Shown: one piece after another, positions 3,066 to 61,086 of the stretch
How the letters are laid out: each line of letters opens with the position of its first letter
Position numbering within the stretch: position 1 is the first letter of the stretch
NCBI GenBank assembly: GCA_964572825.1
Contig: CAZNGS010000009.1
Location: 8,413 to 72,412 of the forward strand
Direction: 5' to 3'
Source: an uncultured candidatus Brocadiaceae bacterium
GTDB lineage: Bacteria > Planctomycetota > Brocadiia > SM23-32
DNA length: 64,000 nucleotides
The notes under the pieces: model-generated
What the model was told of the DNA's origin: nothing
What the model saw: only the letters and a program-made list of their open reading frames with translations
Database searches by the model: none
Position numbers and translations under genes: made by a program

Positions 3066-3079
3066 AAGGAGAGACCGAC

Positions 3080-19386: not shown

Positions 19387-19832
19387 GGGCGGTCGTACAG
19401 CGCGTCTCGGAGGCGTCAGTCCGCGTGGACGGCCGGCTGCTGGCACGCATCGGCGCCGGGCTGGTGGTGCTGCTGGGCATGGGCGAAGAAGACCACGAAG
19501 AGCACGCCGCCTACATGGCCGGCAAGATAGCCGGCCTGCGGGTCTTCGAAGACGACGAGGGCCGGATGAACCTGTCCGTCGGCGAGGTGGGCGGCGCGTT
19601 GCTGATCGTGCCGCAGTTCACCCTCTACGGCGACTGCCGCAAGGGACGGCGTCCGTCGTTCAGCCACGCCGCGCCGCCGGACCGCGCGGAGCGGCTTTAC
19701 GAGCTTGTGGTCGAGCGCCTGCGCGGGCGGGGCCTGGAGGTCCAGACGGGCAGTTTCGGGGCGGAGATGGCCGTCTCCCTGGTCAACGAAGGGCCGGTGA
19801 CGCTTTTGCTGGACAGCGCGCGGCAGTTCTGA
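19383..19832 (+). CDS. dtd: D-aminoacyl-tRNA deacylase
   Basis: [40 protein letters not shown]...NEGPVT is a Dtd signature. The GTG start overlaps the upstream stop as GTGA. The product is about 149 aa. Confidence 0.85.
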
Positions 19833-19858
19833 GCAATCCTCCGTCGGGAGCAGCGAAA

Positions 19859-20533: not shown

Positions 20534-20574
20534 CGCATCCCTTTGGGCAGGTGATCTTCCCCGCCGGCACGCCC

Positions 20575-34900: not shown

Positions 34901-35248
34901 CGCTCCGGAGGCCGCGTCCAGGCAGATCAGGGCTTCCTCCGTGGAGGAGGCGTAATACAGGCGCCCGTCCGCCACGACGCAGGCATAGGCGAAGTCGTAG
35001 CTGACCGGCGGGAGGTAGCCCGGTCGCACGTGGGTGCCGTACCGGGCGGGTCGGGGTGCATGCGGCGCCCGATGCACCCAGAGCTGCCGCAGGGGGGGTT
35101 CCGGGCTTTCAGCGGTAGTGTGGTTCCGCGTCGGGCCGCCCCCGAAAGCGGGCCAGTCGCCAGCATCCGCAACGGAAGCAAGACACAACACTCCAGCGAA
35201 GAGAACTGTGATCGACAGTCTGGACGCTGAGTTTGCGCACTGCATCAT
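31940..35248 (-). CDS. large secreted PQQ-like beta-propeller repeat protein
   Basis: A signal peptide (MMQCANSASRLSITVLFAGVLCLASVADA) is followed by many G.VY.G..DG.LY.LD..TG...W repeats. GGAGAG sits 5 nt before the ATG at 35248. The product is about 1100 aa. Confidence 0.7.
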   Translation of the reverse strand: MMQCANSASRLSITVLFAGVLCLASVADAGDWPAFGGGPTRNHTTAESPEPPLRQLWVHRAPHAPRPARYGTHVRPGYLPPVSYDFAYACVVADGRLYYASSTEEALICLDAASGAERWRFYANGAVRLAPTVGDGHVYFGADDGMVYCLDAGDGELLWQFSAAPDRRLVIGHGRLMSQWPVRTGVTVYDGTVYFAAGLFPVQGVYLFAVDAATGRLHWKRESPYPAESYVLATERCLWVPTGRTAPAVFRRSDGEALERKNVAYKRAGGGGYPRAMHDMVVYGPSEYGISTVRVRGLEVEKPEKQPRFTREPAPDAVGIACRHLVADKDAYYLVRITDGRGRYMRERFQYHLCAVPRQVFEKTMSARVERTLQSKRKYYLGKTADGLRIREHPAVGRALADGEKWRVDKAPASALLLAGATLFAGGEGCVAAYNADTGRETWRTQVEGEAHELAFAEGSLYVSTTKGLIYCFGHGPPSAGSSRSATVRLRSPVHSVAARALAETRMRKGFCMVLGQDAPSLAAEVAANSEFRVVIPVPDDAEARRARERLHAAGLYGKRVVVHRISRPLPYPSYSANLIVSAGGWDAYEAHQVFRVLRPCGGMLVLADESGGRRLRQWAGERLPGLRIVTEGDGARGTLTRGPLDGAGSWTHMYADAQQTSNSRDTRVGTQFMTQWFGPPGPERYQDRHHIPAAPLYRDGRLFVLGRNYLTVVDAYNGTYLWTKEVPDSSRLIASHDANPMCVDDRHLYVASGSQCRVLDLADGRTVRKLKGPRSDRDWGLVATQGDYLIGTNQHPRASFNTVDAPNKKPLLYGPRCGRSRPIVSDNLFAIDKSDFRRLWEYEGGAILNPSITVGRRQVFFVESRSDAAMNAENGRVDMVDFIEKEAYLVAVALESGREEWRKPLEQKARFILYLTYADETLLCTTTYLEDESEKPYIAIYDVSAWDPANGQQKWHTVMNSQAKVLPNTTDHNGSIQHPAVVGGKLYYNPWITENVPICEIATGRDVSDRNFGGSRRCMPFSASERCLFFREEVCKGYDTVADRKVALTMVSRPGCWITMLPAGGLLMMPEGSVGCICGYPMQTSIVLCPAGDGPPAGRVE

Positions 35249-35465
35249 GCACTCTCCAATTCCTTTCAGGCACCCGCGCCGGCCGGACATTCAACTTCGA
35301 TCCGTCCAGTGTACCCGTTGCTGCGCGGCGGGCAACTGCCGGCCGCGGCGGCCCGAACGCGTCCCGAACACGCTGGCCGGCCAGTTCCTTGAGATTACTG
35401 CGTCGTCGACCCACGAGTCCGTCGCCGGCCACCAGAACATTACGTTCCGCAATTGTCCGTCCCTG

Positions 35466-35872: not shown

Positions 35873-38323
35873 TCACACCAGTGCGACGCTGTAGTTGCCC
35901 CGGTGGCGATCCTTCAGCTCGCCTATCTTGGACTTGTTCCAGTTGGGGATGCGGCTGAAGTAGCCCACCACGCGCGTCATGCCGTAGACGTCCGGGCTGT
36001 GGCAGTGCCCGCAGGCCGGCTTGAGTCCGGGCGTGGAGCGATGGCATTGCCGGCAGATGGTGAACTCGGGGCTGATGGTGAGTTGGGCCGCCTGGGTGTT
36101 GCGATAGGTCTTCTCCACCAGGTTGTGGATGCTGGCGGCGGGCGGCCTTTCCTCGCCCACGAAGGCGTGAATGATGGCGCCGCTCTCGATGGCCCTGTGG
36201 AATTTGCTCTGCAGGCGGATTCGGGTCAGCAGGTCCACCGGCGCATCGGCGCGCAGGTGGATGCTGTTGGTGTAGTAGGCGTCGTCGTCGTCGGTGTCGC
36301 CGCAGACCACCTTCTCCGCCTCGGGGAAACGCTGCAGGTCCACCTTGGCCAGGCGGCGCGCGGCGCTCTCTGCCGGGGATTCCTCCAGCGCCACCCGCAT
36401 TCCCTGCTCTTCCCCCAGGGCTTTTGCCCGGAACTGCATGTGCCGCACCAGGTGGAGCCCTTCGCGCACGAGCTGCTCGTCCTCGTGCAGCTCCCGGCCG
36501 GTCAGGTAGAGCAGGGCCTCGTTCAGACCGATCAGCCCCACGATGTAGGTGGCCTTGTCCAGGTCCACGTAGGGCCGCCCGTCCGCCCCATCTTTGCCGA
36601 TCTCCCACAGGGGTTGGCTGGGGCCGGTCATCAGGGAGCCGATGAACCGGCGCTTCTGCCGATGGGCCCGGATGACCAGGTCGATCATCCGGTCCACCTC
36701 CCGGCGAAATGCCTCCATGTTGCCGGGCCCGGCCCGGTAGGCGGCCTGGGGCAGGTTGATGGTGACGTTCTGGAACCCGCAGAACCGCATGCTCTCCGGG
36801 TGCTGGATCATGTAGTCGTCGCGGATGGTGGTGCGCAGCCGGCAGCAGGCGCTCAGGGTCACCTCATCGCGGTCGAAGATGAAGTAGGGCACGCCGTTCT
36901 CGCTGGCTATCTGGCAGGCGTATTCGAGTATCTCCCGCTGGGCGGGGTCGCTCAGGGTAGCATCGCTGATGTGCAGGTCGCACTTGGGGAACGCGAACAC
37001 GTTGCCGTACTGGTCGCCGGCCCTCCAGACATCCAGCATGGCCTTGCAGAAGCGCTGGGCGGTCTTCTCGTAGTCACCGTAGGTGCGCCCGTCGTACTCG
37101 CCGCCCGGCCCGATGGCGGGAACGTCCTTGAGGTACTCGGGCACGCCGGTGTGGACGTTGAAGTCCAGGAACAGGGTCTGCCCGCCGCGGCTGAAGGCGT
37201 TCTGGGAGGAGCTGAATATCAGGTGCTGCGCCTCCTGCTCCATCTCCCCGTAGGACATACCCTCCACGTAGGGGGCGTAGAAGATGTTGATGTAGCCCAC
37301 GCCCAGGGCTCCGGCGTAGTATGCCTGCATGGAGGCCAGAAAGGTGTTCAGGTGCCCCGTCAGCGTGCGCGCGTGGCGGGCCGGCGCGCTGGAGGTGTCC
37401 AGGTTCTGCAGGTTCAGGCCGTATTTCTTCAGGTATTCCAGGCTATGGCTGGAGCAGTAAACCCGCGTGGGATAGCCCAGGTCGTGCAGATGTATCTCGC
37501 CCAGCATGTGGGCCTCGGCCACCTCGTCGGAGAAGACCTCCTGCAGGGCGTACTGCTTGAGCGTGTGCTCGGCCACCGACAGGTTGATGGCCTCCGGGTT
37601 GTTCTGGGCGATGTTGGCGTTTTCCTTGCTCTTGCTGCGCAGGAGCTGGTCCAGGTCGAACTTGGGCATTCCGACGACGGCCTGCTTTTTCAGCCGGGCG
37701 GTCAGGCCGCGTTCGAACAGCTCGTTGTCCACCAGTTCCCGGATCAGGCCGGTGGAGATGCGGGTGAGGCCGCTTTTCATCACGCGGCGCTCAACGGCGG
37801 AGGCGATCTCGCGGGCCACCCGCGGGGCCAGGTCGGCCTCGGTCTCCAGGGCCTGCGCGATCTTCCCCTTGTCCCACTCGGTCAGCCTGTCCTGGGTCTC
37901 GGTGTTGACCAGCAGCGCTATGTCGGTCGAGTTGCCGTTGCTGCGCACCGGCTTGCGCACCTGCAGGGACTGGCGGACGCGTGCCCGGCGGTCTCGATAC
38001 AGAATATACGCCTTGGCCGTCCTGGCGTGGCCGGTCTCGATCAGCACTTTTTCCACGACGTCCTGGATCTCCTCGATGGTCGGCGGGACGCCGTCGTAGT
38101 CCTTTTCCAGCAGGACGGTTACCATCGAGGCCAGCTCCTCGGCCAGGGCCCGGTCCTTCCCGCCGACGGCCTGCGCGGCCTTGAAGATGGCGTTGGCTAT
38201 CTTGGATTCATCGAAGGGCACGAGTCGGCCGTCCCGCTTTCTCACCTCTTTAATCCCGCGGGACGCGTCCCCCGTGTTTGCCAGATGTCCTTCCTCCTGT
38301 GCGGCGTCCGTCTCAACGGCCAT
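35873..38323 (-). CDS. nrdD: anaerobic ribonucleoside-triphosphate reductase (class III) with an N-terminal ATP-cone
   Basis: The ATP-cone reads VRKRDGRLVPFDESKIANAI. The C-terminus has a four-Cys zinc site (CRQCH...CGHCH) and a glycyl-radical motif (TRVVGYFSR). The ATG at 38323 has a GGGAGGG RBS. Confidence 0.9.
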   Translation of the reverse strand: MAVETDAAQEEGHLANTGDASRGIKEVRKRDGRLVPFDESKIANAIFKAAQAVGGKDRALAEELASMVTVLLEKDYDGVPPTIEEIQDVVEKVLIETGHARTAKAYILYRDRRARVRQSLQVRKPVRSNGNSTDIALLVNTETQDRLTEWDKGKIAQALETEADLAPRVAREIASAVERRVMKSGLTRISTGLIRELVDNELFERGLTARLKKQAVVGMPKFDLDQLLRSKSKENANIAQNNPEAINLSVAEHTLKQYALQEVFSDEVAEAHMLGEIHLHDLGYPTRVYCSSHSLEYLKKYGLNLQNLDTSSAPARHARTLTGHLNTFLASMQAYYAGALGVGYINIFYAPYVEGMSYGEMEQEAQHLIFSSSQNAFSRGGQTLFLDFNVHTGVPEYLKDVPAIGPGGEYDGRTYGDYEKTAQRFCKAMLDVWRAGDQYGNVFAFPKCDLHISDATLSDPAQREILEYACQIASENGVPYFIFDRDEVTLSACCRLRTTIRDDYMIQHPESMRFCGFQNVTINLPQAAYRAGPGNMEAFRREVDRMIDLVIRAHRQKRRFIGSLMTGPSQPLWEIGKDGADGRPYVDLDKATYIVGLIGLNEALLYLTGRELHEDEQLVREGLHLVRHMQFRAKALGEEQGMRVALEESPAESAARRLAKVDLQRFPEAEKVVCGDTDDDDAYYTNSIHLRADAPVDLLTRIRLQSKFHRAIESGAIIHAFVGEERPPAASIHNLVEKTYRNTQAAQLTISPEFTICRQCHRSTPGLKPACGHCHSPDVYGMTRVVGYFSRIPNWNKSKIGELKDRHRGNYSVALV

Positions 38324-38351
38324 TTTGGCCCTCCCGGTGGTCTCAGACGCG

Positions 38352-38855
38352 TCAATCCCTGTGGCGTGAACTGGTTTCTTCCGGCGCGGTCCCGTCATCG
38401 GCGGCGTCCCGCAACACCGTGCCCGCCTCTTCCACGAAGTCGCTGACGTCCTTGAATTCCTGATAGACGGAGGCGAAGCGGATGTACGCCACCTGGTCGA
38501 GCTCGCGCAGCCTGGTCATCACGAGCTGCCCGATCTTCCGGCTTGGCACTTCGCCCTCGTAGTGGCGGTGCAACTCCCGCTCGACGTCCTCGGCCAGCGC
38601 CCTGATGCGCTCGGCGGGGATGGGACGCTTGTAACATGCCTTGTTCAGGCCGGAGATGATTTTCTTCAGGCTGAAGTCCTCGCGGCCCCCGTCTTTCTTG
38701 ATCACCCGCAGGACGCTCTCTTCGATGCGCTCGTAAGTGGTGTAGCGGCGGCCGCAGGCGTTGCATTCCCGGCGGCGCTTCACGTAGGTCCCGTCGGCAC
38801 TGGGGCGGGAGTTGACGACCCGATCATCGTCCTTCTTGCAGTACGGGCACTGCAC
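38352..38855 (-). CDS. nrdR: transcriptional repressor NrdR
   Basis: MQCPYCKKDDDRVVNSRPS...CNACGRRYTTYERIEES is the NrdR zinc ribbon. An ATP-cone follows. The start is GTG with a GAGG RBS. Confidence 0.85.
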   Translation of the reverse strand: MQCPYCKKDDDRVVNSRPSADGTYVKRRRECNACGRRYTTYERIEESVLRVIKKDGGREDFSLKKIISGLNKACYKRPIPAERIRALAEDVERELHRHYEGEVPSRKIGQLVMTRLRELDQVAYIRFASVYQEFKDVSDFVEEAGTVLRDAADDGTAPEETSSRHRD

Positions 38856-45842: not shown

Positions 45843-45924
45843 CGGCGCTCTCTCGGTCAGGGAAGTTGGGCCGTGCGCTCCGATCGGCCCTGCCTTCCCG
45901 GGCAGCAACCCCCGAGCGACTCGG

Positions 45925-46025
45925 GGCAAGCAACCCCACGGCAGTCCGGGGTACTGCTTATGGCTGCTGGCTTCCGCCCCTGACCAGGTTCACAGCCGCC
46001 CGGCTCCATGGGACCCACCCGTCAA
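45925..46025 (-). ncRNA. ffs: signal recognition particle RNA (small bacterial 4.5S type), ends approximate
   Basis: The minus strand reads ...CCCAUGGAGCCGGGCGGCUGUGAACCUGGUCAGGGGCGGAAGCCAGCAGCCAUAAGCAGUACCCCGGACUGCCGUGGG... It contains the domain IV signature GUCAGG-GGC-GGAA-GCC-AGCAGC with a GGAA tetraloop. Flanking complementary arms pair CCCAUGG/CCGUGGG and CCGGG/CCCGG. It sits immediately upstream of dnaX, the conserved genomic position. Confidence 0.6.
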
Positions 46026-46311
46026 TGACGCCCGGGCAGTCCTGTACCACGGGGAGGCAAACAAGCCTCACGAAGTGGTCAGCCCTGCTGGAGCGGTTTG
46101 CAGGTTACAGGGCACCGCTAGCGCCCCGCTTAGCACGGCCCGCGTCTCGTCGGAATCTTACATCCGTCCGGTGCACGGTGGGCCATCCGGTAAGCTATCA
46201 CAGCCGCCCTCCACGCGCAACCGAAACCGCCCCCGGCCACCTTCCATTTGACCCGGCCGCCCGAGATGCGTATGCTGTTCGACCATCCGATTTTGTGGCG
46301 GGGAATATAGC

Positions 46312-47106
46312 ATGCTCATCATCGGCGAAAGAATCAACGCCACCCGCGGGCCCATCGCCCGCGCACTCAAAGAACGCAACGCGGAGAAGATCGCACACGA
46401 GGCCCGCGTCCAGGCCGAAGCCGGGGCCGACTTTATCGACGTGAACGGCGCCAGCGACCCCTCGCACGAGGCCGAGAACCTGCGGTGGGCCCTGGAGGTG
46501 GTGCAGGAGGCCGTGAACCTGCCGGTCTGCGTGGACTCCGCCAATCCGGACATCCTGCGGGAGGCCGTCGAGCTGGTCGAGTCCGAGCGAATGATGCTCA
46601 ACTCCGCTACGGCCGAGGACGGCAAGCTGCAGACGGTCATGGACATCGCCGCCGGCACGGGCGCTCTCGTGGTGGCCCTCGCCATGGACGACAGCGGAGC
46701 GCCGGACACTGCTGAGCGGCGCGTGTCCGTCGCCGCCCGCCTGATTGAGGCCGCCGAGGAAGCCGGCGTCCCCCGGGAACGGGTTTACGTGGACCCCTGC
46801 GTGCAGCCCATCGGCACGGACGCCACCCAGGGCATGGAGGTCATCTCGGCGGTGTTCCGCATCATGCAGAACTTCCCCGGGGTGCACACCACGTGCGGAT
46901 TGTCCAACATCAGTTTCGGCCTCCCCAACCGCAGCCTCATCAACCGCACCTACCTGTCCTGCCTGATCGTGGCCGGCCTGGACTCCGCCATCCTCGATCC
47001 CACGGAAGAAGGCATGAAGGAGGCGATATGCGTCGGGAAGGTTCTCGCCGGGCGCGACGAATTCTGCATGGACTACATCCGCGCCATGCGGGACAGGGAA
47101 CCGTAG
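46312..47106 (+). CDS. pterin-binding methyltransferase (methyltetrahydrofolate:corrinoid methyltransferase, AcsE/MtrH/MetH-domain family)
   Basis: MLIIGERINATRG...FIDVNGAS...GLSNISFGLP is the pterin-binding (DHPS-like) methyl-H4folate methyltransferase signature. Confidence 0.75.
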   Translation: MLIIGERINATRGPIARALKERNAEKIAHEARVQAEAGADFIDVNGASDPSHEAENLRWALEVVQEAVNLPVCVDSANPDILREAVELVESERMMLNSATAEDGKLQTVMDIAAGTGALVVALAMDDSGAPDTAERRVSVAARLIEAAEEAGVPRERVYVDPCVQPIGTDATQGMEVISAVFRIMQNFPGVHTTCGLSNISFGLPNRSLINRTYLSCLIVAGLDSAILDPTEEGMKEAICVGKVLAGRDEFCMDYIRAMRDREP

Positions 47107-47128
47107 CCCGCCGAAACGGCGGGGGGGA

Positions 47129-49435
47129 TCAGGACTCGGAGGAAGCCGCCTTTTCCCTGCCCGAGAGGTACCGGTCAATCGACGCGGCCGCGCGTTTGCC
47201 GGCGCCCATTGCCTGGATGACGGTGGCCGCGCCGGTGACGATGTCGCCCCCGGCGTAGACCCCCGGCAGGCTGGTCTGCCCCGTCACAACGTCCGCGTCG
47301 ACGGTGCCCCAATCGGTCACTTTCAGACCCGGCGTGGTCTGCGGGACGAGCGGGTGGGGCCGGTTGCCGTAAGCGACGATCACCATGTCCACCGAGAACT
47401 CCATCTCCGAGCCCTGGATGGGGATGGGTCGCCGGCGCCCGTCCTCGCCCGGCTCACCCAGCTCCATGCGGACACAGCGCAGCCCGCGAACCCATCCCTT
47501 CTCGTCCCCGAGCACCTCGACGGCGTTGTGCAGCCACATGAAGCGGATGCCTTCCTCTCTGCCGTGCTCCAGTTCCGCGTCCCGTGCCGGCGATTCTTCC
47601 ACGCTGCGGCGGTAGACGATGTGCACCTCTTTTGCTCCCAGCCGCAGCGCCGTCCTCGCGGAATCCATGGCCACGTTGCCGCCGCCCAGCACGGCTACCC
47701 GGTCCCTGACCATCACCGGCGTGGCATAGTCGGGCCGGTAGCCGCGCATCAGGTTGACCCGCGTGAGGTACTCGTTGGCGCTCAGGACGCCGTTGAGGTT
47801 TTCCCCCGGTATGTCGCCGAAGATGGGCGTGCCCGCGCCGGAACCGATGAAGACGGCCTCGAAGCCCTCCTCGAACAGGTCCTCGACCGCGGCCGTCTTG
47901 CCCACCACGAAGTTGCAGACGATCTCAACGCCCATCGAGCCCACATACTCCACTTCCTGGGCCACCACTTCCTTGGGAAGCCTGAAGGCCGGTATGCCGT
48001 AGAGCAGCACCCCGCCGGGCTCGTGGAGGGCCTCGAAAACGGTGGGCGCGTATCCCTTCCTGCCCAGTTCGCCGGCGGCCGTCAGTCCCGCCGGGCCGGA
48101 GCCGACCACGGCGACCCGACCCTTCGCGTCCGCCGCGACCGAGGGCGGCTGGACCAATCCCTCCTCCCGCTCGTAATCGGCGGCAAATCGCTCCAGGTTG
48201 CCGATCGCAACCGATTCTCCCCGGCGGCCCAGCACGCACAGCCCCTCGCACTGGTCCTCCTGGGGACAGACGCGGCCGCATATGGCGGGCAGGGAGTTGT
48301 CCTCCTTCAGCACCCGGGCCGCGCCCGGGAAGTCCTCCTCCGCGATGCGTTGGATGAAGCCCGGGATGTCGATGCCCACCGGGCAGCCCTCGACGCACTG
48401 GGGGTCCCTGCATTGCAGGCAGCGCCGGGCCTCCACGACGGCCTGCTCGGGACGCAGGCCCAGGGGAACCTCCCCGAAATTGCGCACCCGCACCGCGACG
48501 GGCTGCTCGGGCATGGGCTGGCGCGGTATCTGGACGGGCTTCTCTGCGGAACGGCCGGCCTCCAGCAGGGCCTCCTGGAGCCGCGTGTGCTCCAGGTCGC
48601 AGCCGTGCGCGGGCTGGTATTGGGGCAGGTTCCGCTTGCGGAAATCGTCATCGTACTGGCTCAGACGGCGTGCCAGCTCCTGGAAGTCCACCCGGTGTCC
48701 GTCGAACTCCGGCCCGTCCACGCAGGCAAATTTGGTCTCCCCGCCCACTGTCACCCGGCAGCCGCCGCACATACCCGTGCCATCCACCATGATGGGGTTG
48801 AGGCTCACGATCGTCCTCACGCCGAACGGGCGCGTTACCCCGCTGATGGCGGCCATCATGGGGACGGGCCCCACGGCATAAACGGCGTCGATCTGCTCCT
48901 CGGATTCCAGCATCCCCTGCAGGAGGTCCGTGGGGAACCCGTGGTAACCGGCCGAGCCGTCGTCGGTGGCGATTTCCAGTTCGTCGCAGGTTCGGTCCAT
49001 CTCATCGCGCAGGATGAGCAGCTCCTCGGTGCGGGCGCTGATGATCCCGCTCAGACGATCGGCCCGGCGGGCCAGGGCGCTCGCGATCGGCCAGATGAGG
49101 GCGATTCCCACTCCGCCGCCCACCGCCACGGCGTGCGTGGCGGGCAGTATCTCCGTGGGCTGCCCCAGCGGGCCCGCCACGTCCGGGACCAGGTCTCCGG
49201 GCTCCATGGCGGCAAGCTGGCGGGTGCTGGCGCCGACGGCCTGGAAGATGATGGTGATGGAGAGCGCACGCGGGTCGGCCTGGGCCACGGTCAGAGGCAC
49301 CCGCTCGCCCCGTTCGGTGGGCCGCACGACCACGAACTGCCCCACCTGCCGGGCAACCGCGATGCGGGGGGCGTGGATCGTCATCCGGTAAATATCGGGA
49401 GCCAGCTCTTCTTTGCTGAGTATCTCGAATCTCAT
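47129..49435 (-). CDS. fused ferredoxin-NADP+ reductase-like domain (NfnA/SudB/PyrK type, FAD + 2Fe-2S) and glutamate-synthase-small-chain-like domain (NfnB/SudA/GltD type)
   Basis: An N-terminal PyrK-like domain (MRFEILSKEEL...GTGMCGGCRV...FACVDGPEF) is fused in frame to a GltD-like domain. That domain has two 4Fe-4S motifs (CLQCRDPQCVEGCP, CGRVCPQEDQCEGLC) and two dinucleotide folds (VAVVGSGPAGLTAAGEL, VAVLGGGNVAMD). The start ATG at 49435 overlaps the galU stop as ATGA. Confidence 0.75.
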   Translation of the reverse strand: MRFEILSKEELAPDIYRMTIHAPRIAVARQVGQFVVVRPTERGERVPLTVAQADPRALSITIIFQAVGASTRQLAAMEPGDLVPDVAGPLGQPTEILPATHAVAVGGGVGIALIWPIASALARRADRLSGIISARTEELLILRDEMDRTCDELEIATDDGSAGYHGFPTDLLQGMLESEEQIDAVYAVGPVPMMAAISGVTRPFGVRTIVSLNPIMVDGTGMCGGCRVTVGGETKFACVDGPEFDGHRVDFQELARRLSQYDDDFRKRNLPQYQPAHGCDLEHTRLQEALLEAGRSAEKPVQIPRQPMPEQPVAVRVRNFGEVPLGLRPEQAVVEARRCLQCRDPQCVEGCPVGIDIPGFIQRIAEEDFPGAARVLKEDNSLPAICGRVCPQEDQCEGLCVLGRRGESVAIGNLERFAADYEREEGLVQPPSVAADAKGRVAVVGSGPAGLTAAGELGRKGYAPTVFEALHEPGGVLLYGIPAFRLPKEVVAQEVEYVGSMGVEIVCNFVVGKTAAVEDLFEEGFEAVFIGSGAGTPIFGDIPGENLNGVLSANEYLTRVNLMRGYRPDYATPVMVRDRVAVLGGGNVAMDSARTALRLGAKEVHIVYRRSVEESPARDAELEHGREEGIRFMWLHNAVEVLGDEKGWVRGLRCVRMELGEPGEDGRRRPIPIQGSEMEFSVDMVIVAYGNRPHPLVPQTTPGLKVTDWGTVDADVVTGQTSLPGVYAGGDIVTGAATVIQAMGAGKRAAASIDRYLSGREKAASSES

Positions 49436-50376
49436 GGGCTGCCGAACATGTTGGAGAGCTCGGACCACCATTGCTGTGCCTGCGACCGCAGAGCGCCGGC
49501 CAGGGTCAGCGCCAACTGCGCCTCCAGCATCCCCGCCGGAGTCCCCACGTCGAACCTGGCCCCATCCACCACCAGGCCCCGGTAGGGTTCGGCCTCCGCC
49601 AACAGGTCCTGGGCCATGGTGAGCTGGAACTCGCCCCGCTGCCGTCGTCCCTCCCGGATCATGCGTTCCAGGATGTCGAAAATGCCCGGCGTGAACACGT
49701 GCATGCCGAAGTGGGTCAGGTAGCGCCCGTCCCCCAGCCCGGGGACCCGGCACCGTTCCCTGGCCACCTGGACGCTGGGTTTCTCGATGAACCCCTCCAC
49801 CTCTATCAAACTCGGAATGGCGTCCGCCGGACGGCCCCGTGCGACCCCGAAACGGCCCACCGCTCCCTCGGGCGAGGGCGTCAATGCGGTGAGACTGGCC
49901 CCTTCGAAAACGGTCACAAGCTGTCCAGCGCAGGGCCGCTCCGTACGGCTGATGTAGACGTGGTCGCCCAGCAACGCCAGGAAGGGCTCGTCCCCCACCC
50001 AGTCGCGTGCGCACCAGATGGCGTGTCCCAGCCCTTGCTGTTCCTCCTGGGGGACGAAACTCAGACGCTCGCCCATCTCCTGCAGCCTGTCCGACCACTG
50101 GAAGGCCCATTTCTTGCCTTCGTAGTGGGGGCGCGCGTGCTCGGGCATCGCTCTAAAGTAGCGGCGGAACTCCTCGCGCGCGCCGGGCTGGCACACAATG
50201 CAGACCTCCTCCACCCCGGCCGCCAGCGCCTCCTCCACGCCCATTTGCACCACGGGCTTGGTATACCCGTCGCGGTCCACCAGCGGAAAAAGCTCTTTGC
50301 GCACGCAGGAACTGGCCGGGTACTGGCGCGTGCCCATGCCGGCGGCCGGGATTACGGCCTTCTGCACCATTGTCAT
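49432..50376 (-). CDS. galU: UTP--glucose-1-phosphate uridylyltransferase
   Basis: MTMVQKAVIPAAGMGTRQYPAS...KELFPLVD is the GalU nucleotidyltransferase signature. The start is at the ATG 50376. Confidence 0.85.
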   Translation of the reverse strand: MTMVQKAVIPAAGMGTRQYPASSCVRKELFPLVDRDGYTKPVVQMGVEEALAAGVEEVCIVCQPGAREEFRRYFRAMPEHARPHYEGKKWAFQWSDRLQEMGERLSFVPQEEQQGLGHAIWCARDWVGDEPFLALLGDHVYISRTERPCAGQLVTVFEGASLTALTPSPEGAVGRFGVARGRPADAIPSLIEVEGFIEKPSVQVARERCRVPGLGDGRYLTHFGMHVFTPGIFDILERMIREGRRQRGEFQLTMAQDLLAEAEPYRGLVVDGARFDVGTPAGMLEAQLALTLAGALRSQAQQWWSELSNMFGSP

Positions 50377-50616
50377 ATCGGAGCCCCTTGATGGCAGAGC
50401 TTGTTCTACAGTCCGGCCTGCGCCGGAAAGGGATGCGGCGCCGCGAGGCGGCAAGGCGCAAGCCCTTCATTCTAACGCGACACCGTGGGACTGCAAAATG
50501 CCGGCGCGGACGGTTGTCTTTCGACCGGTGCTCTGATATGAAAGAGGATCGCCAGATGAAGGCATGCAGGGCAGAGACCGCTGGCTCAACGGCACTGCCC
50601 GACAGGAGCGAACGTC

Positions 50617-51942
50617 ATGATGACCTTTCCGGAGGGTTTCGTCTGGGGTGCTGCCACGTCCGCCTTCCAGGTCGAAGGGGCAGCGCGCGAAGACGGCAAA
50701 GCCCCCTCCATATGGGACACCCACGTGCACAAGCCGGGCACGGTCCGAGACGGCTCAAACGCCGACATCGCCGCCGACAGCTACCACCGCTGGCGGGAGG
50801 ACATCGAGTGCCTGAACGAGCTGGGCGCCGATGCCTACCGGTTCTCCATCTCCTGGCCCCGGGTCATTCCGGACGGACGCGGCCCCGGGAACCAGAAGGG
50901 CTTCGACTATTACAACCGCCTGATCGACGCCCTGCTGGAGAACGGCATCACTCCCTACGTCACCCTCTACCACTGGGACCTGCCGCAGGCCCTGGAGGAC
51001 CAGGTGGGCTGGGAAAGCCGGGAGATGGCGGGCATTTTCGCGGACTACGCCGGCCGCATGGTCGCCGCCTTCGGCGACCGCGTCACCCACTGGCTGACGT
51101 TCAACGAAATGCACGCCCTCGTCGATCAGGGCTACGGTACGGGAACCAAGGCGCCCGGGAAGAAACTGCCCGAAAAAGAGGTCACGCAGGTCTATCACCA
51201 CGTTCTGCTCGCCCACGGGAAGGCCGTCCGCCGCATGCGCGCCGAGCGGGATGGCCTGCAGATCGGCACGGCAGAGAATCCTCGCGCCTGCGTGCCCGTC
51301 GTCGCCACGGAGGAGAACATCCGGGCTGCACGCATCGCGTGGGACCGCCAGATCGGGTTCCTCTTCGAGCCCATGTACAACGGGCGCTACCCGGACGGGC
51401 TCGGCGTGTGTCCAGATGTGCGTGAGGGGGATATGGAGACCATCCGGGCAGACCTCGACCTGGTGGGGCTCAACTTCTACTTTGGCACCTACGTGGAGGC
51501 CAGCGACGAGCCGCCGTACTACCGCCGGTTCCCCTGGCCGGAATACCACCCTGCCGCGCCATCCGAGGGATGGATCCGGATGATTCCGGAGGTCGTCTAC
51601 TGGGGGGTGCGCTTCGCCGCCGAGAGATACGACGTCCCGGCCATCTACGTCTTCGAGAACGGTTTCCCCCTGCCCGGGGACGAGGACCCGGAACAGAACC
51701 TGAACGACGTGTCGCGCATCATGTTCGTGCGCAGCTACCTGACCGCCCTCCACCGGGCCGTTCGGGAGGGCTACCCGGTCAAAGGATACTTCTACTGGAC
51801 GCTGATGGATTCCTTCGAATGGGCCAGCGGCTTCGGGAGCCGTTTTGGCCTCTACCGGACCGATTTCGAAACCCTGGAGAGGACGCCCCGGCTGAGCGCC
51901 CGCTGGTACGGCGAGGTGGCGGCGCGTAACGCCATTGTCTGA
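50617..51942 (+). CDS. GH1 beta-glucosidase
   Basis: FPEGFVWGAATSAFQVEGA, the TLYHWDLPQ region with the TFNE acid/base glutamate, and the nucleophile region YVFENG are present. AGGAG sits upstream. Confidence 0.9.
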   Translation: MMTFPEGFVWGAATSAFQVEGAAREDGKAPSIWDTHVHKPGTVRDGSNADIAADSYHRWREDIECLNELGADAYRFSISWPRVIPDGRGPGNQKGFDYYNRLIDALLENGITPYVTLYHWDLPQALEDQVGWESREMAGIFADYAGRMVAAFGDRVTHWLTFNEMHALVDQGYGTGTKAPGKKLPEKEVTQVYHHVLLAHGKAVRRMRAERDGLQIGTAENPRACVPVVATEENIRAARIAWDRQIGFLFEPMYNGRYPDGLGVCPDVREGDMETIRADLDLVGLNFYFGTYVEASDEPPYYRRFPWPEYHPAAPSEGWIRMIPEVVYWGVRFAAERYDVPAIYVFENGFPLPGDEDPEQNLNDVSRIMFVRSYLTALHRAVREGYPVKGYFYWTLMDSFEWASGFGSRFGLYRTDFETLERTPRLSARWYGEVAARNAIV

Positions 51943-52104
51943 CGCCGCGGGCCCGGACCATTGCAGCGAGCGTCTCCTGCGGCCCTATCAGTAAACCAGC
52001 ACAAAACCCGGGTCTACCGCGGGCGGCCGCGACCGGTCGCAATACAGTATGCGCAAAGACCGCGTTTCCACCCGAGGTTCGCCTTCCGCCTGGAGGGACG
52101 TGAA

Positions 52105-55100
52105 ATGAAGCGAGTGGCCCTGTTGACGGTGACGATCCTGGCAGTCTGTTCATCTGGCCCGTGGGGAGTGGACGCAGGGGCGGCCGAGTATTCCTGGCAG
52201 CGGCCGCACGCCCGGGTCCTTCCGAGGGGTGACCTGGAATGGGCGCCGCAGCCTTTCGAGTTCCAGGCCGGCGACGTGGTCCGCTGCATCGACTACGAGG
52301 GCGGCGACGACGCCAATCCCGGCACGAAGGCCCGGCCCTGGAAGCATCACCCCTGGGACCCCGCCGCCACCGGCCGGGCGGCCCGGGCCTCCGGCCCGAT
52401 CACCTACCTCTTCAAACGCGGTGTCATCTACCGGGGCAGGCTCCTCGCCGACGAATCCGGCGAGCCGGGCAACCCCGTCCGCCTGACCAGCGATCCCGAC
52501 TGGGGCGAGGGCGAGGCCGCGTTCTATGGCTCCAGGCGCATCGAGGACGGCTGGAGGCGCTGCACGTCCTCGGACGTCCCCGAGCACATGCCGGAGCCGG
52601 CGAAGGTGTGGTACAAAGACATCGGCACCGAGTGGCGCCCGTGGGCCCTGTGGGAGCTGCGGGACGGGCAGGTCACGCGCATCCCGATCGCCAGGGAGCC
52701 GAACTGGCAGATCAGCAATCCGGACGATCCCCAGAGCGAGTGGCACGAATGGACCGGCCGCATCAAGGGCGAGGGCTCCATCGACACGGTGCACCTGACC
52801 CAGAAGGACCCCCACTTTTTCGACGGCGGCTTCGTCTGGACCGAATGGAGCGGCAACATGGGCACCATCCACCTCGCCGCCATCCGGGGATACGATCCGG
52901 ACCGCCACCTGCTGAAGGCCGGCAACGGCAGCAAGGGCAACCGCTACTACATCGAGAACGTGCCGGGTTTTCTGGACTCCCCCGGCGAGTATTACCACGC
53001 CATGGACGGCCCCCACGCGGGCCGGCTCTACCTGCGCCTGCCGGACGACCGCAACCCCAATGGCGCCATTCTGGAGGGCAGCGCCGTCAAGGTGCCCATC
53101 ACCATCATCGACCGGGCAAACATCGAGATCAGCGGGCTGCGGTTCAGCTTCAACGACGTGGGAGACCCGGGCACGGGCTGGCCGCCCGCCACGCAGGCGC
53201 CGGCCGCCATTCGGGTGGCCGGCAACTGCCGCAACATCCGCGTCTCCCACTGCCGGTTCCTCCATGTGATGAGCGTGCTGACCGCCTACCCCCGCATGAA
53301 CGAGAAGTACACTCAAATCTACCTGCGCGACCTGCTGCCCTGGCGAGAGGACCTGGTGGAGAACATATCCATCACGGACTGCGACATCGCTTACGTTGAC
53401 CGCCCGGCGATACAGTTCCGCACCGGGCGCATGCTGGGGCGCATCGAATGGCCGCCCGTGGGCAAGCTGGGAAACGTCGCCGTGCTGCGCAACCGGCTCC
53501 ACCACGTAAGCAACCGACCGGGCGACAACATGTACAGCGCCATCCCCGCCATTTCGGTGCTCTTCCCCCGGGAGGCGGAGATCGCCGGCAACATCGTGGA
53601 CCGCTGCTGGGGCAGCGGCATCTTCGTTTTCGGCGGCAAGGCCAGCGGGGCCATCGGAGAGGCGCCCCTGACCCGCATCCTGATCCACCACAACAAGGCC
53701 ACCGATACCATGCTCGCCTGCAACGACTACGGGGGCATCGAATACTGGCAGGGCGGCCCCATCTACGCCTTCTGCAACATCTCCGGCAACTCCATCGGCT
53801 ACAAGAATTACATCGATATCAAGAACCACTGGAAGACCGTGGCCTACAACATGTACCTGGACGGGACCTTCAAGAGTTACACCTTTAACAACATCATCTG
53901 GGGCAAGAGCAACGATCTGGACTACCCTTACCGCAACCGCGGGGCCTACTTCGTGGTCCTGGGCTTCATGGACCACTTCTTCAACAATACCGCCTGCAGG
54001 TTTATGCACGGCATCGTGGGCTCGTCCGGCAACCGATCCAGCTTCCTGGGCAACGTGCTGGACGACATCAGCGTCTCCTTCATCCAGCAGAACCGGCCCG
54101 GCGACACCAGCCTGCGGGGAGGTGGAGACACCGGCGCGATGGGCCAGCGCGGCATGCCCACCAATGCCTACGGCTACAACATCTTCGTGGGCGACAGTGA
54201 ACGCGGCGTGGGCTCCGCGCGGGACGTGGGCGGCCCCACCGTCCAGGACTGGCGGGCCGACCTGGAAGAGCTTGGCGCCTTCTGCGCTCAGACCGGCTGG
54301 CGGACCGACCGAAGTCCGCTGCGCGACGGAGAGAACCACGATTTCGGCCTCGTGCCCGATTCCGCCGCGCAGGACCGCGGCGTGAAGTTCTTCGTGCCCT
54401 GGGCCCTTTACGGCATGGCCGGAGAGTGGAATTTCTACCTCCACCCCGCCGACCCCGCAGTGGTGCTCGGGGAAGGTTTCTACATGACCGAGGAATACGT
54501 CGAGAGGCACATGTACAGCAACATCCCCCGTATGAACCTGGAAGTGCCCGGCGCCACCGAGCAGGATTACGTCCGGGGCCCCCTGGAGGACTGGGTCAAG
54601 GGGGCCCTGCGCTTCAACGGCACCGACCGCTACGCCGTCCTCACCCACGAGGCCATCACGCAGGACCGCACCTACGGCCACGGTGTCCCCGAGGGCGAAG
54701 ACCGCATGAGCAGAGGCGAATTCCCCTTCGAGGGCGAGGAGCGCAAAAGCCTGGACATGGAGACCAATGACTTCCTGGTGGAGACCTGCTTCAGGACCGA
54801 ACCGGGCCACACCGGGGGGACGCTGGTCTCGAAAATGGGAGACGCCGGCTACCGGGTCTGCGTCAACGAGCGGGGCGGCACCACGCTGCTGATCCGGCAC
54901 GGGGAGGCCGTTGACCGGGCCGAGTGCGGCACGGCGGTCAACGACGGCCGGTGGCACCACGTGCTCGCCGAAGCCGACCGCGAAAACGCAGAGCTGAACA
55001 TCTACGTGGACGGCCGGCGCACGCGGCGGGCCCGGACCCACAACGTACCCCGCGGCGCATCGCTCGCCAACACGGCCGACTTCCTGGTGGGCAAAAGCCC

Positions 55101-55284
55101 GGAGGGCGACTACTTCGCCGGCGCGATGGACTTCCTGCGGGTCAGCCGCGGCACGCTGGCCGATGCCAACACCACGATCGAGGAGATCTACGCCTGGCAG
55201 TTCGACGGCCCGTTCCTGCGCGACTTCCGCGGCAACGAACCGCTCGGGAAACGCGATGCCGGGGCCATTGAGGGTGTGCAGTAG
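52105..55284 (+). CDS. secreted right-handed parallel beta-helix (pectate-lyase-fold) protein with a C-terminal LamG/concanavalin-A-like domain
   Basis: A signal peptide (MKRVALLTVTILAVCSSG) is followed by PbH1-type beta-helix repeats (NxxxxHH, NIxxNxI patterns). The C-terminal about 180 aa are jelly-roll like (GTAVNDGRWHHVLAE...LNIYVDG...ADFLVGK). GGAGGG precedes the ATG at 52105. Confidence 0.7.
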   Translation: MKRVALLTVTILAVCSSGPWGVDAGAAEYSWQRPHARVLPRGDLEWAPQPFEFQAGDVVRCIDYEGGDDANPGTKARPWKHHPWDPAATGRAARASGPITYLFKRGVIYRGRLLADESGEPGNPVRLTSDPDWGEGEAAFYGSRRIEDGWRRCTSSDVPEHMPEPAKVWYKDIGTEWRPWALWELRDGQVTRIPIAREPNWQISNPDDPQSEWHEWTGRIKGEGSIDTVHLTQKDPHFFDGGFVWTEWSGNMGTIHLAAIRGYDPDRHLLKAGNGSKGNRYYIENVPGFLDSPGEYYHAMDGPHAGRLYLRLPDDRNPNGAILEGSAVKVPITIIDRANIEISGLRFSFNDVGDPGTGWPPATQAPAAIRVAGNCRNIRVSHCRFLHVMSVLTAYPRMNEKYTQIYLRDLLPWREDLVENISITDCDIAYVDRPAIQFRTGRMLGRIEWPPVGKLGNVAVLRNRLHHVSNRPGDNMYSAIPAISVLFPREAEIAGNIVDRCWGSGIFVFGGKASGAIGEAPLTRILIHHNKATDTMLACNDYGGIEYWQGGPIYAFCNISGNSIGYKNYIDIKNHWKTVAYNMYLDGTFKSYTFNNIIWGKSNDLDYPYRNRGAYFVVLGFMDHFFNNTACRFMHGIVGSSGNRSSFLGNVLDDISVSFIQQNRPGDTSLRGGGDTGAMGQRGMPTNAYGYNIFVGDSERGVGSARDVGGPTVQDWRADLEELGAFCAQTGWRTDRSPLRDGENHDFGLVPDSAAQDRGVKFFVPWALYGMAGEWNFYLHPADPAVVLGEGFYMTEEYVERHMYSNIPRMNLEVPGATEQDYVRGPLEDWVKGALRFNGTDRYAVLTHEAITQDRTYGHGVPEGEDRMSRGEFPFEGEERKSLDMETNDFLVETCFRTEPGHTGGTLVSKMGDAGYRVCVNERGGTTLLIRHGEAVDRAECGTAVNDGRWHHVLAEADRENAELNIYVDGRRTRRARTHNVPRGASLANTADFLVGKSPEGDYFAGAMDFLRVSRGTLADANTTIEEIYAWQFDGPFLRDFRGNEPLGKRDAGAIEGVQ

Positions 55285-58733: not shown

Positions 58734-60868
58734 AAAGGCTCCTGGCGGCCGCCGCGCTGGTCATCCTGGTGAGTTCCTGCGCAAGCGTCGGTCCGGCTCC
58801 GCCGGGCTGCCACATGGCCGCTTCACACACCGTTGTCGCCGGCCAACCCGCCGAACTCGGAATCCGCGGAAAGGCCGCGCATCTGGAGATCGAGCAGACG
58901 CTCGAGCCCGGCGGACCGGTCGAGCAATGGAAGGCGGACAACCAGAAGGCGCGGGAAAACGGCGAGCGTTTCCCGGACAAGCTGACCGTGGCCAGGCTGG
59001 CCGTGAGCTATGCCGACGGCCGGGGTGTGGAAGCCGATATCCGCTACAACGAAAGCGTCGGCGCGCTCCGGCGGGAGTGGTGGAACCCCGTCGACGGTTT
59101 CATCCATCACCTCGCCTTCGCGCAGGTGGCCTGGACGCGCCCGATCGGGGAGAGCGGCCTCCGGCACAACGTGGTCTACCGGATGAGATGGGCCAATCCG
59201 CGCCCCGAGGTGGCCATCAGGTCGATTGAGGTGAAGCCGGCAGAGGGTCTGGGCGAGGGGAGACTCCTGATCTTCGATGCAGCCACCGGGTCCACGCCGT
59301 CCGCGGGCGCAACTTACTTCGTGGCGCCCGACGGCGACGATTCCGCCCCCGGCACTTTCGATCGACCGTGGACAACCCTCCACAAGGCCGCCGAAACCAT
59401 CCAGTCGGGCGATACGGTGTACGTCCGCGGGGGTACCTACCGGCCGACCGAGCGGATACTCTTCAAGTACATCGACGCGCCTGAGGGGCAGCGCACCCGC
59501 ATCATCGGCTACCCCGGCGAGACCGCGACCTTCGACTTCATGGACGCTCACTGGGACACCAGCCCGGAACGCCGGCAGTACGGCTTCGAGCCGTATCCCC
59601 ACGATCAATCCATGATCATGGCCTATGACTGCGACCGTTTTACGTTCAAGAACCTGCATCTGACCCGCTCGCGGGCGCGCGGGTTCGGCATGGAGACCGG
59701 CTGGTGGAAGTGGGCTCACCGGGACAACCTGATCGACGGCGGCAGGCCGGAGGTGGTCAATAACACCCCGTTCCAGGATTCCGAAATCTGCTACTGTTCG
59801 ACGTACATGACCTACAACGCGGGGATCCGGTTCCGCGGCGCCCGTAAGGGCAGACTGATAGGCAACGTCCTCATGCGCCCCGAGACGATCGCCATGGGCC
59901 CCGCGGATCCGAAGAATCCCGGCTCCGGCCCCGTGGCGGGGCTGGACGCCACCACGTTCTACTCGCGGAGCGGCAACAAGAAGCGCAACCCCCCCATGGA
60001 GGGAATCGACGGGGGAGGCTTCCACGACGTGGAGGTCGCCTACAACGAGATATGCTGGGGCGACAAGGAGTGCTTTCTTATCGACGGGGACGTGGACGGC
60101 CTGCGCGTGCACCACAATTACGTGCACGATGCCTGGAACCTGCCCTGGGTCGGCGGCATCTCCCCCAACGGCTACGGCCGGCAGGAGGACATCAAGATCG
60201 ACCACAACATCGCCCACCACGTGGGCACAGGCTTCGGCATAGGCACGGAAGGCGGCGGCTGGGGCAAACGGGTCCGCATTCACCACAACCTCGCCTATGA
60301 CTGCCACTGGTCCGGCGTGGGGGTCAGCGGCGCGTGGAAGAGTAACGCAAGCCTTTATGACATCTCGGTCTACAACAACACGCTGTTTCACAACGGCCAC
60401 TACACCCGCAATCCCCGTATCCGGTGGCGCGAGAACAGGGGGCCGGCTGGGGGCATCTCGGTCAGCTTCCCTGCCGAAGACCTGGAGGGGGTTGTGGAGG
60501 ACGTCGTGGTCGCCAACAACCTGATTCTGCGACCCCGGGACTACGCCCTGACCCTCAACGGGGAGGGCGATCCGGAGGAAAGCAACATCGTCTTCACCCA
60601 CAACGTGACCGACCTGGAGGCCGAAAGCGACATCTTCGACCTCGAGCGCAACAGTGGCTGGCACCCGGTTCGAGACGACGGCCTCCTGGTGGTCGAAAGG
60701 CCGCTCCTCCGGGACCCGCGGGACCGGGACTTCCGCCTCGTGCCCTCCACCCCGGCCACAGACGCCGGCATCGCCATCAATCCCCGGGGCAAACCCGACC
60801 CGGAGGGCGGGAAGACCTGCGTCGGCGCCTTCGGGCCGGACTCGAAATGGGTGGAGCTGGACCCGTGA
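58730..60868 (+). CDS. beta-helix (pectate-lyase-fold) lipoprotein with an N-terminal uncharacterised domain
   Basis: A signal peptide with a lipobox (LVILVSSC) is present. An N-terminal domain ends in RWANPRPEVAIRSIEV. Then come FVAPDGDDSAPGTFDRPWTTLHKAAETIQSGDTVYVRGGTY and multiple HHN/NN beta-helix rungs. GGAGAG RBS. Confidence 0.7.
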   Translation: MKRLLAAAALVILVSSCASVGPAPPGCHMAASHTVVAGQPAELGIRGKAAHLEIEQTLEPGGPVEQWKADNQKARENGERFPDKLTVARLAVSYADGRGVEADIRYNESVGALRREWWNPVDGFIHHLAFAQVAWTRPIGESGLRHNVVYRMRWANPRPEVAIRSIEVKPAEGLGEGRLLIFDAATGSTPSAGATYFVAPDGDDSAPGTFDRPWTTLHKAAETIQSGDTVYVRGGTYRPTERILFKYIDAPEGQRTRIIGYPGETATFDFMDAHWDTSPERRQYGFEPYPHDQSMIMAYDCDRFTFKNLHLTRSRARGFGMETGWWKWAHRDNLIDGGRPEVVNNTPFQDSEICYCSTYMTYNAGIRFRGARKGRLIGNVLMRPETIAMGPADPKNPGSGPVAGLDATTFYSRSGNKKRNPPMEGIDGGGFHDVEVAYNEICWGDKECFLIDGDVDGLRVHHNYVHDAWNLPWVGGISPNGYGRQEDIKIDHNIAHHVGTGFGIGTEGGGWGKRVRIHHNLAYDCHWSGVGVSGAWKSNASLYDISVYNNTLFHNGHYTRNPRIRWRENRGPAGGISVSFPAEDLEGVVEDVVVANNLILRPRDYALTLNGEGDPEESNIVFTHNVTDLEAESDIFDLERNSGWHPVRDDGLLVVERPLLRDPRDRDFRLVPSTPATDAGIAINPRGKPDPEGGKTCVGAFGPDSKWVELDP

Positions 60869-61086
60869 CAGCCTTGGCGCAGGGGGTGAAGACCGCCGGA
60901 AGAACGCATCCGGTGAAACTACTGGCCGTCTGGGGGCACTGAGGGCCTCCCGGCCCCTTTGCCGTTCCTCGCCACAAGCGTTACGCGCTGACGGTTGGAC
61001 ACGCCTGTCCGCAGTTGACATAAGGCGAGTCTGGGATTACACCCGCGTATGAACCTTGCTACGCTTTCCGGGATGTGCGAGCAATC

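Follow-up and report, generated by a model that had tools for sequence, protein, structure and literature searches.

A single-chain NfnA-NfnB fusion in a Brocadiia genome: a probable electron-bifurcating Nfn transhydrogenase encoded beside a GalU-family gene

This locus raises the question of whether one long open reading frame (ORF) encodes both subunits of an electron-bifurcating Nfn transhydrogenase in a single chain, and whether the overlap of this ORF with a galU-like gene has a metabolic meaning. The ORF lies in 64,000 nucleotides of DNA (the window) from an uncultured Brocadiaceae bacterium of the Planctomycetota, Brocadiia (GCA_964572825.1, contig CAZNGS010000009.1, positions 8,413 to 72,412), with a G+C content of 65-70%. 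The 768-amino-acid (aa) product carries an NfnA/SudB-like module followed by an NfnB/SudA-like module, and it is probably a single-chain, electron-bifurcating Nfn transhydrogenase, whose cofactors, activity and direction we infer from homology and fold. Four Nfn architectures have been described; one of them, 'Pattern B', is the NfnA-NfnB fusion of the Clostridium autoethanogenum CAETHG_RS07665 type, reported from Firmicutes, Bacteroidetes and Fusobacteria (PMC6405883).

The gene was modelled as follows.

47129-49435, minus strand: fused nfn gene, 768 codons plus TGA, encoding a single-polypeptide NfnA-NfnB.

The translation from the ATG at 49435 is uninterrupted, with zero stops. In the ORF list, the gene appeared as a 993-aa minus-strand ORF (47129-50110) overlapping a second minus-strand ORF (49432-50454). 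Over the extra part, 49436-50110, the G+C content by codon position was 0.85/0.70/0.48 in the nfn frame and 0.70/0.48/0.85 in the galU frame, and the values for the whole coding sequences were 0.72/0.47/0.875 for nfn and 0.69/0.475/0.85 for the galU-like gene. The coding pattern of this part fits the galU frame and not the nfn frame, so the 225-aa leader is considered spurious. The best 120 homologues (56-86% identity, from a database of 5.8 billion proteins) agree with the start at 49435, since nearly all of them are 746-809 aa long and span 96-100% of the 768-aa query. An earlier note on this DNA had proposed both the single stop-free frame of 768 aa and the spurious leader, and the translation, the third-position G+C (GC3) of 0.48 against 0.85 and the homologue lengths bear it out. 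A look-up of the exact protein sequence gave no existing record.

The two modules and their cluster motifs are located as follows.

48620-49435, minus strand: NfnA/SudB-like module, residues 1-272, with a flavin adenine dinucleotide (FAD) beta-barrel, an NAD(H) Rossmann fold and a [2Fe-2S] domain.
48722-48784, minus strand: Asp(Cys)3 [2Fe-2S] motif DGTGMCGGCRVTVGGETKFAC(V), D218-C238, fitting DGTGMCGxCRx10CV.
47132-48523, minus strand: NfnB/SudA-like module, residues 305-768, with a helical domain for two [4Fe-4S] clusters, a b-FAD Rossmann fold and an NADP(H) Rossmann fold.
48377-48424, minus strand: first [4Fe-4S] motif RCLQCRDPQCVEGCPV, R338-V353, fitting RCx2Cx4Cx3CPV.
48188-48277, minus strand: second [4Fe-4S] motif GRVCPQEDQCEGLC...GNLER, G387-R416, with E393, fitting GRVCPQExQCx3C...Gx2ER.

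Pfam recognised DHODB_Fe-S_bind at residues 213-250, Fer4_20 at 316-426 and Pyr_redox_2 at 440-746, together with a Pyr_redox match. Residues 1-272 of the N-terminal module align with residues 6-276 of the small subunit of Pyrococcus furiosus NfnI (5jca_S, 2e-84), and residues 4-264 align with residues 8-266 of Thermotoga maritima NfnA (4ylf_A, 8e-73); the matches to the small subunit of NfnII/Xfn (5vj7_B, 6e-47) and to PyrK of dihydroorotate dehydrogenase B (DHOD-B; 1ep1_B, 6e-19) are weaker. In the C-terminal module, residues 305-760 align with residues 5-462 of T. maritima NfnB (4ylf_B, 1e-156), followed by the large subunits of NfnI (5jca_L, 2e-146) and Xfn (5vj7_A, 1e-138), with GltD (6s6s_G, 6e-84) and dihydropyrimidine dehydrogenase (DPD, 6e-60) lower. 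Both modules are thus nearer to characterised Nfn than to Xfn, GltD, DPD or PyrK, although the margin of the large module over Xfn is small. These results agree with the earlier description of a PyrK-type FAD/[2Fe-2S] module followed by a GltD-type module with two [4Fe-4S] motifs, and the alignments to NfnA/NfnB, SudAB and GltD that the note had called for place both modules with Nfn. The possibility it had raised, that the N-terminal domain is a DHOD-B PyrK paralog, did not hold, because NfnI is matched at 2e-84 and PyrK at 6e-19.

The motifs conserved in Nfn proteins are ERxPxT, DGTGMCGxCRx10CV, RCx2Cx4Cx3CPV and GRVCPQExQCx3C..Gx2ER (Liang et al. 2019, PMC6405883), and the full set was found in the 768-aa translation. 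GERVPLT at residues 43-49 fits the ERxPxT motif of the a-FAD site, and DGTGMCGGCRVTVGGETKFACV at residues 218-239 reads as DGTGMCGGCR-x10-CV, the Asp(Cys)3 [2Fe-2S] motif. The second [4Fe-4S] motif has a spacer of 11 residues, which is the length in P. furiosus NfnI, against 13 in T. maritima. The presumed ligands of all three clusters are invariant across 53 aligned fused homologues (D218, C223, C226 and C238; C339, C342, C347 and C351; C390, E393, C396 and C400). So is Y608-R609-R610, which aligns with the YRR of 4ylf_B and 5jca_L, the NADP-binding arginines at the 2'-phosphate.

An AlphaFold2 model built from the 53-homologue alignment gave a single confident body, with a predicted local distance difference test (pLDDT) score of 89.9 and a predicted template modelling (pTM) score of 0.90. 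In Foldseek, the C-terminal part of the model superposed on 5jca_L and 4ylf_B with a target-normalised TM score of 0.91-0.93 and a root-mean-square deviation of about 2 Å, at a large-subunit identity of 55% to T. maritima NfnAB (4YLF/4YRY) and 51% to P. furiosus NfnI, which is SudAB (5JCA/5JFC). Both modules align with these enzymes over their full length and share their cluster ligands, ERxPxT and the NADP-binding YRR. In contrast, the characterised enzymes consist of two polypeptides, whereas the window protein, known from sequence, is one chain with a linker of about 30 residues. The folds of the modules are also shared by NfnII/Xfn (5VJ7), GltD (6S6S), the N-terminal half of DPD (1H7X) and PyrK (1EP1), as a GltD-type unit of two [4Fe-4S] clusters and two Rossmann folds and a PyrK-type unit of a ferredoxin-NADP reductase (FNR) domain and a [2Fe-2S] domain. 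The matches to the Xfn small subunit, GltD, DPD and PyrK are much weaker than those to Nfn, and GltB and PyrD, the partners of GltD and PyrK, are absent at the window nfn.

At the family level, residues 3-758 matched positions 2-750 of the 752 in NCBIfam NF009414, the model of the fused family, with 1044 bits and E = 0. NF009414 corresponds to PRK12778, 'bifunctional dihydroorotate dehydrogenase B NAD binding subunit/NADPH-dependent glutamate synthase'. The protein resembles Pattern B Nfn of C. autoethanogenum (CAETHG_RS07665 / AGY75803) in the order of NfnA then NfnB, in the single polypeptide of about 750-770 aa, in the end-to-end match to the model and in the cofactor motifs. The gene is an ordinary addition to a fused-Nfn family that has been described and curated before.

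The mechanism that we propose is the one that PMC6405883 summarises from the structures of the T. maritima and P. furiosus enzymes. NADP(H) would react at the bifurcating b-FAD of the C-terminal NfnB-like module. The high-potential electron would leave b-FAD by way of the Asp(Cys)3 [2Fe-2S] cluster, reach a-FAD in the N-terminal NfnA-like module and end on NAD+/NADH, and the low-potential electron would travel from b-FAD via the two [4Fe-4S] clusters to ferredoxin (Fd). The NAD(H) specificity of NfnA is attributed to replacement of the residues that bind the 2'-phosphate in FNR (PMC6405883). In vivo, confurcation is expected to predominate, Fd(red) + NADH + 2 NADP+ → Fd(ox) + NAD+ + 2 NADPH, and the enzyme would thereby supply NADPH to anaerobic metabolism.

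Several points weigh against a bifurcating Nfn. The NF009414 score of 1044 bits misses the curated equivalog threshold, 1103, by 59 bits. [quoted passage not shown] A Pfam survey of 30 other ORFs of the 64-kb window found no gene for ferredoxin, pyruvate:ferredoxin oxidoreductase (PFOR), hydrogenase or Rnf among the ORFs scanned. In addition, P. furiosus NfnII/Xfn, a close Nfn homologue of the same architecture, has NAD+-independent Fd:NADP+ activity (PMC6405883), and the large subunit barely separates the two types, with 2e-146 for 5jca_L and 1e-138 for 5vj7_A. The window protein could accordingly be read as a non-bifurcating, NAD-independent ferredoxin:NADP+ oxidoreductase of the NfnII/Xfn kind, or as an enzyme with another third substrate in Nfn architecture. 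The large module discriminates poorly, which leaves this alternative some probability. However, the N-terminal module matches NfnI (2e-84) and T. maritima NfnA (8e-73) far better than the Xfn small subunit (6e-47), and the canonical motifs are all intact, and we consider the alternative unlikely. The bifurcating, single-chain Nfn is the reading preferred here.

The public names of this protein family point in another direction. The window protein matched TIGR01316 'gltA' at 568.8 bits, above its cut-off of 471.75, and its close relatives carry the NCBI name 'NADPH-dependent glutamate synthase', while relatives at about 57% identity carry the NF009414 name. The naming after TIGR01316 probably arises because the NF009414 score falls just short. 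Taken literally, the name would make the protein a Pyrococcus-type glutamate synthase (GltA), or an electron donor of the GltD/PyrK kind for another catalytic subunit. However, the protein has no glutamine amidotransferase, flavin mononucleotide (FMN) or GXGXG (GltB) domain, and none is encoded adjacent to it; the Pfam survey of 30 other window ORFs likewise found no GltB partner. GltD structures are matched at 6e-84 against 1e-156 for NfnB, and the N-terminal partner module is of the Nfn type. The TIGR01316 name derives from a SudA/NfnB homologue. Since both the GltB-type domain and such a neighbour are absent, a glutamate synthase is very improbable. The Nfn proteins of this lineage are routinely mis-named in public annotation.

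To place the fusion among its relatives, related nfn loci were collected by tblastn and labelled L001-L168, of which 163 could be classified as fused or split. As tblastn matches cross stop codons, adjacent in-frame nfnA and nfnB genes look like one full-length match, and the loci were therefore classed by translation. In this way, 41 loci proved truly fused and 122 were split into nfnA and nfnB, while all 13 loci at 65% identity or above were fused. The best 120 homologues were likewise all single proteins with both domain sets, and the taxa named among them are Planctomycetota, 'Candidatus Brocadiia', Brocadiaceae and Anammoxibacter. Together with the 65-70% G+C, the named close relatives suggest that the window belongs to a planctomycete affiliated with Brocadiia but outside the anammox group. 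The anammox genera Brocadia, Jettenia and Scalindua have the fused form at 54-58% identity. Other fused loci are scattered over Eubacteriales, Oscillospiraceae, Phycisphaerales, Bryobacteraceae and one metagenome-assembled genome of the Desulfobacterales. Because the close relatives are all fused and the distant loci mostly split, the fusion is regarded as a trait of the lineage and not a frameshift.

An artefact of assembly or sequencing, that is, a lost stop or an indel joining nfnA and nfnB, would also yield a single ORF, and split loci are often only one in-frame stop and a short spacer away from a fused gene. Against an artefact, the same unbroken ORF occurs in every relative at 65% identity or above, in independent assemblies from NCBI, ENA, JGI and Logan, and the architecture recurs in dozens of independent assemblies overall. 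GC3 is 0.875 across the whole nfn coding sequence, and the linker is modelled with a pLDDT of about 80-90 and includes a helix. Given the independent assemblies, we regard an artefact as ruled out for practical purposes.

The earlier note had held that the two subunits are normally encoded by separate genes. This is correct for Nfn at large, in which 122 of the 163 loci are split, but not within this lineage, where a single chain is the form in every close relative examined and also in the anammox genera. The unusualness that it implied is likewise to be divided: the architecture is real, but it is not novel, as Pattern B has been described, NF009414 is curated and the best 120 homologues are all fused. 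Neither the main text nor the supplementary table of PMC6405883 contains Planctomycetes or the anammox genera, and a search for literature on Nfn in anammox bacteria or Planctomycetes, or on 'fused Nfn', found nothing beyond this 2019 review. Planctomycetota, which the 2019 survey of Nfn architectures did not cover, and Brocadiia in particular therefore extend the published distribution of Pattern B beyond the phyla listed there, though not the public annotation. The importance of this extension is modest: it bears on neither a new mechanism nor an open question, and the coupling to galU is a shallow feature of gene order.

Two further candidates from the locus comparison were rejected. Programmed read-through or selenocysteine insertion at the stops of the split loci was considered; the stops are TAA (56), TAG (36) and TGA (31), often with several in one spacer, and the in-frame bias of the split loci arises because the loci were ranked by their longest high-scoring segment pair. 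In L015, L028 and L103, the match seemed to contain an insertion of about 260 aa; in L015, the one checked, this was an adjoining PyrK-like gene merged into the match.

In a separate observation, a relative at 66% identity (L087, positions 1-1195) has, about 3 kb upstream of its fused nfn, genes for a Pyr_redox_2/Rubredoxin_C protein and for a GXGXG-domain protein resembling the C-terminal part of GltB.

The segment that joins the two modules was delimited by alignment with split and fused relatives and from the secondary structure (DSSP) and pLDDT of the model.

48524-48619, minus strand: inter-module linker, residues 273-304 (YQPAHGCDLEHTRLQEALLEAGRSAEKPVQIP).

It comprises, in order, the C-terminal tail of NfnA up to a conserved Cys (…AHGC-DLEH), about 19 extra residues and the N-terminus of NfnB (IPRQPMPEQ), and a helix is predicted at residues 281-296. 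The sequence and length of the linker vary among the fused clades, and the forms in Eubacteriales, Oscillospiraceae and Bryobacteraceae differ from that of the window; therefore, either the fusion occurred repeatedly or the linker evolves fast. The fusion would have arisen by loss of the nfnA stop codon and reading through a short in-frame spacer, with the NfnA C-terminal tail and the NfnB N-terminus kept. The Brocadiia fusion may be independent of the clostridial Pattern B fusion, from which the window protein differs in host phylum, linker and score against NF009414. If it is independent, it would represent a naturally single-chain, minimal flavin-based bifurcase in a new phylum. A naturally fused and confidently modelled Nfn could suit expression or engineering.

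The second part of the question concerns the gene upstream of nfn.

49432-50376, minus strand: GalU-family sugar-1-phosphate nucleotidyltransferase gene, 314 aa, upstream of nfn (Pfam NTP_transferase, 4e-21).
49432-49435, minus strand: ATGA stop/start overlap of the galU-like gene and nfn, read directly as ...agcccATGAgattc.
50469-50497, minus strand: sigma-70-like site TTTGCA-17-TAGAAT, 9/12 matches, about 93 nucleotides (nt) upstream of the galU-like start, a weak candidate operon promoter.

The ATG of nfn (49435-49433) overlaps the TGA of the galU-like gene (49434-49432), the junction reading ...AGC CCA TGA in the galU-like frame and ATG AGA TTC in the nfn frame; the ATGA overlap noted earlier at 49432-49435 is therefore present in the sequence. 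The label galU that was given to the upstream gene holds for the family, since all 16 of the 16 best PDB matches are UTP-glucose-1-phosphate uridylyltransferases (UGPases; top match 2ux8, 8e-38), but it does not extend to the equivalog. The score against TIGR01099 galU was 150.3 bits, with a cut-off of 326.8, and the N-terminal motif reads AAGMGTRQYPASSCVRKELFP, which diverges from 2ux8 and from the canonical GxGTRxLPxTK. The gene is best described as encoding a GalU-family nucleotidyltransferase of unconfirmed specificity.

A scan of the region for the sigma-70-like consensus gave one site, where 0.3 were expected in shuffled sequences, and no such site between the galU-like gene and nfn. Because the two genes overlap and the sole site precedes the galU-like gene, they are probably co-transcribed and translationally coupled. 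The 15 nt that precede the nfn start codon show no obvious Shine-Dalgarno sequence, which would fit coupling by termination and reinitiation.

The galU-like protein was searched for across the 168 nfn loci, in three of which (L091, L092 and L086) the sequence upstream is too short for a judgement. The gene adjoins nfn only in the window and in L081, L082 and L083, where the orthologues are 312-315 aa long and occupy the same position. L081 (nfn 86% identical) and L082 (78%) have a 4-nt overlap (3099-3102 and 5001-5004, respectively), while L083 (75%) has a 12-nt gap in its place. The pairing thus occurs in 3 of the 9 distinct arrangements among close relatives (at least 65% identity) that have enough upstream sequence. 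The galU-like gene is not upstream of nfn in L001, L084, L089 and L090 (74-76% identity) or in L085 and L087/L088 (66-69%), and about 150 other nfn loci, including all the more distant ones with sequence to judge, lack the pairing. In a neighbour-joining tree, the window groups with L081 and L082 in one clade, next to which L083 branches, and the galU-less L001, L084, L089 and L090 form the sister clade. The arrangement was probably inherited within this shallow lineage.

From the overlap, the earlier note had concluded that a redox enzyme is tied to UDP-glucose synthesis in one transcript. A real functional coupling would mean that NADPH supply is joined to the synthesis of nucleotide sugars or envelope polysaccharides, or that the two proteins form a physical complex. 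In its favour, L081 and L082 share the ATGA overlap despite different genes around the pair; in L082, a FabA-like gene lies upstream and a gene for an 891-aa protein downstream. The pair is also retained in L083. However, the overlap itself is lost in L083, and the sister clade, L085, L087 and the roughly 150 other loci lack the pairing. To our knowledge, no biochemical link joins UDP-glucose pyrophosphorylase and Nfn. Because of this distribution, a functional coupling is very unlikely, and the metabolic tie is not upheld: we read the pairing as a recent accident of gene order, restricted to one lineage.

A wider scenario would combine an independent fusion in Brocadiia with recruitment, in one sub-clade, into an operon with a divergent GalU-family enzyme, so that NADPH/ferredoxin redox would be coupled to nucleotide-sugar (envelope glycan) synthesis. 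The two together seem quite improbable. If the recruitment were also true, it would constitute an unrecognised redox link to cell-envelope biosynthesis.

On its other side, nfn faces a convergent gene, with these features between and beyond.

46312-47106, plus strand: pterin-binding protein gene, 264 aa, convergent with nfn (NF005719, 301 bits, above the cut-off; Pfam Pterin_bind and CdhD).
47107-47123, no strand assigned: 7-bp G+C hairpin CCCGCCG-TTT-CGGCGGG, occupying the greater part of the 22 nt that separate the convergent nfn and pterin-binding stops.
45871-46138, minus strand: bacterial large signal recognition particle (SRP) RNA, Rfam RF01854, 140 bits, full length, directly upstream of dnaX.

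NF005719 is of the methyltetrahydrofolate:corrinoid/iron-sulfur protein methyltransferase type. The pterin-binding neighbour also occurs in L081, L082, L085/L086 and L090, that is, in clades both with and without the galU-like gene, and it could hint at C1/folate metabolism (Wood-Ljungdahl-type or split MetH) beside an NADPH-generating enzyme. Past this gene lie the SRP RNA, dnaX, ybaB, recR and rpoN. The order nfn/pterin-binding/dnaX/ybaB/recR/rpoN recurs in relatives with and without the galU-like gene, and this synteny goes deeper than the pairing with galU. The hairpin is possibly a bidirectional transcript end; an intrinsic-terminator scan of 46900-50700 called none, and it passed over the hairpin because this has no T-run. 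The dnaX ORF as listed (TTG at 45929) overlaps the SRP RNA, and the true dnaX start is therefore probably an ATG near 45842 (MYVVFARKYRPQRF...).

Upstream of the galU-like gene and farther out in the window, the following genes were recognised.

50617-51942, plus strand: glycoside hydrolase family 1 (GH1) beta-glucosidase, divergent from the galU-like gene over a 240-nt intergenic stretch (50377-50616).
51961-55284, plus strand: 1107-aa secreted-looking protein with a C-terminal Laminin_G_3 as its sole recognised domain.
35873-38515, minus strand: anaerobic ribonucleotide reductase NrdD with an ATP-cone.
31940-35290: 1116-aa PQQ/BamB-like beta-propeller protein, between the NrdD and radical-SAM genes.
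31185-31967, minus strand: radical-SAM protein, which may be the NrdD activase.

The order GH1/galU-like/nfn is also found in L081. With a coding filter of GC3 > 0.78 and second-position G+C < 0.58, no ORF of at least 100 codons passed in 3066-4299, 9923-12092, 13290-14423, 19387-20574 and 58823-61023; these stretches may hold shorter genes, RNAs or genes of atypical composition. NrdD and the radical-SAM protein indicate an anaerobic (or facultative) capability of the host, which is consistent with a ferredoxin-linked enzyme.

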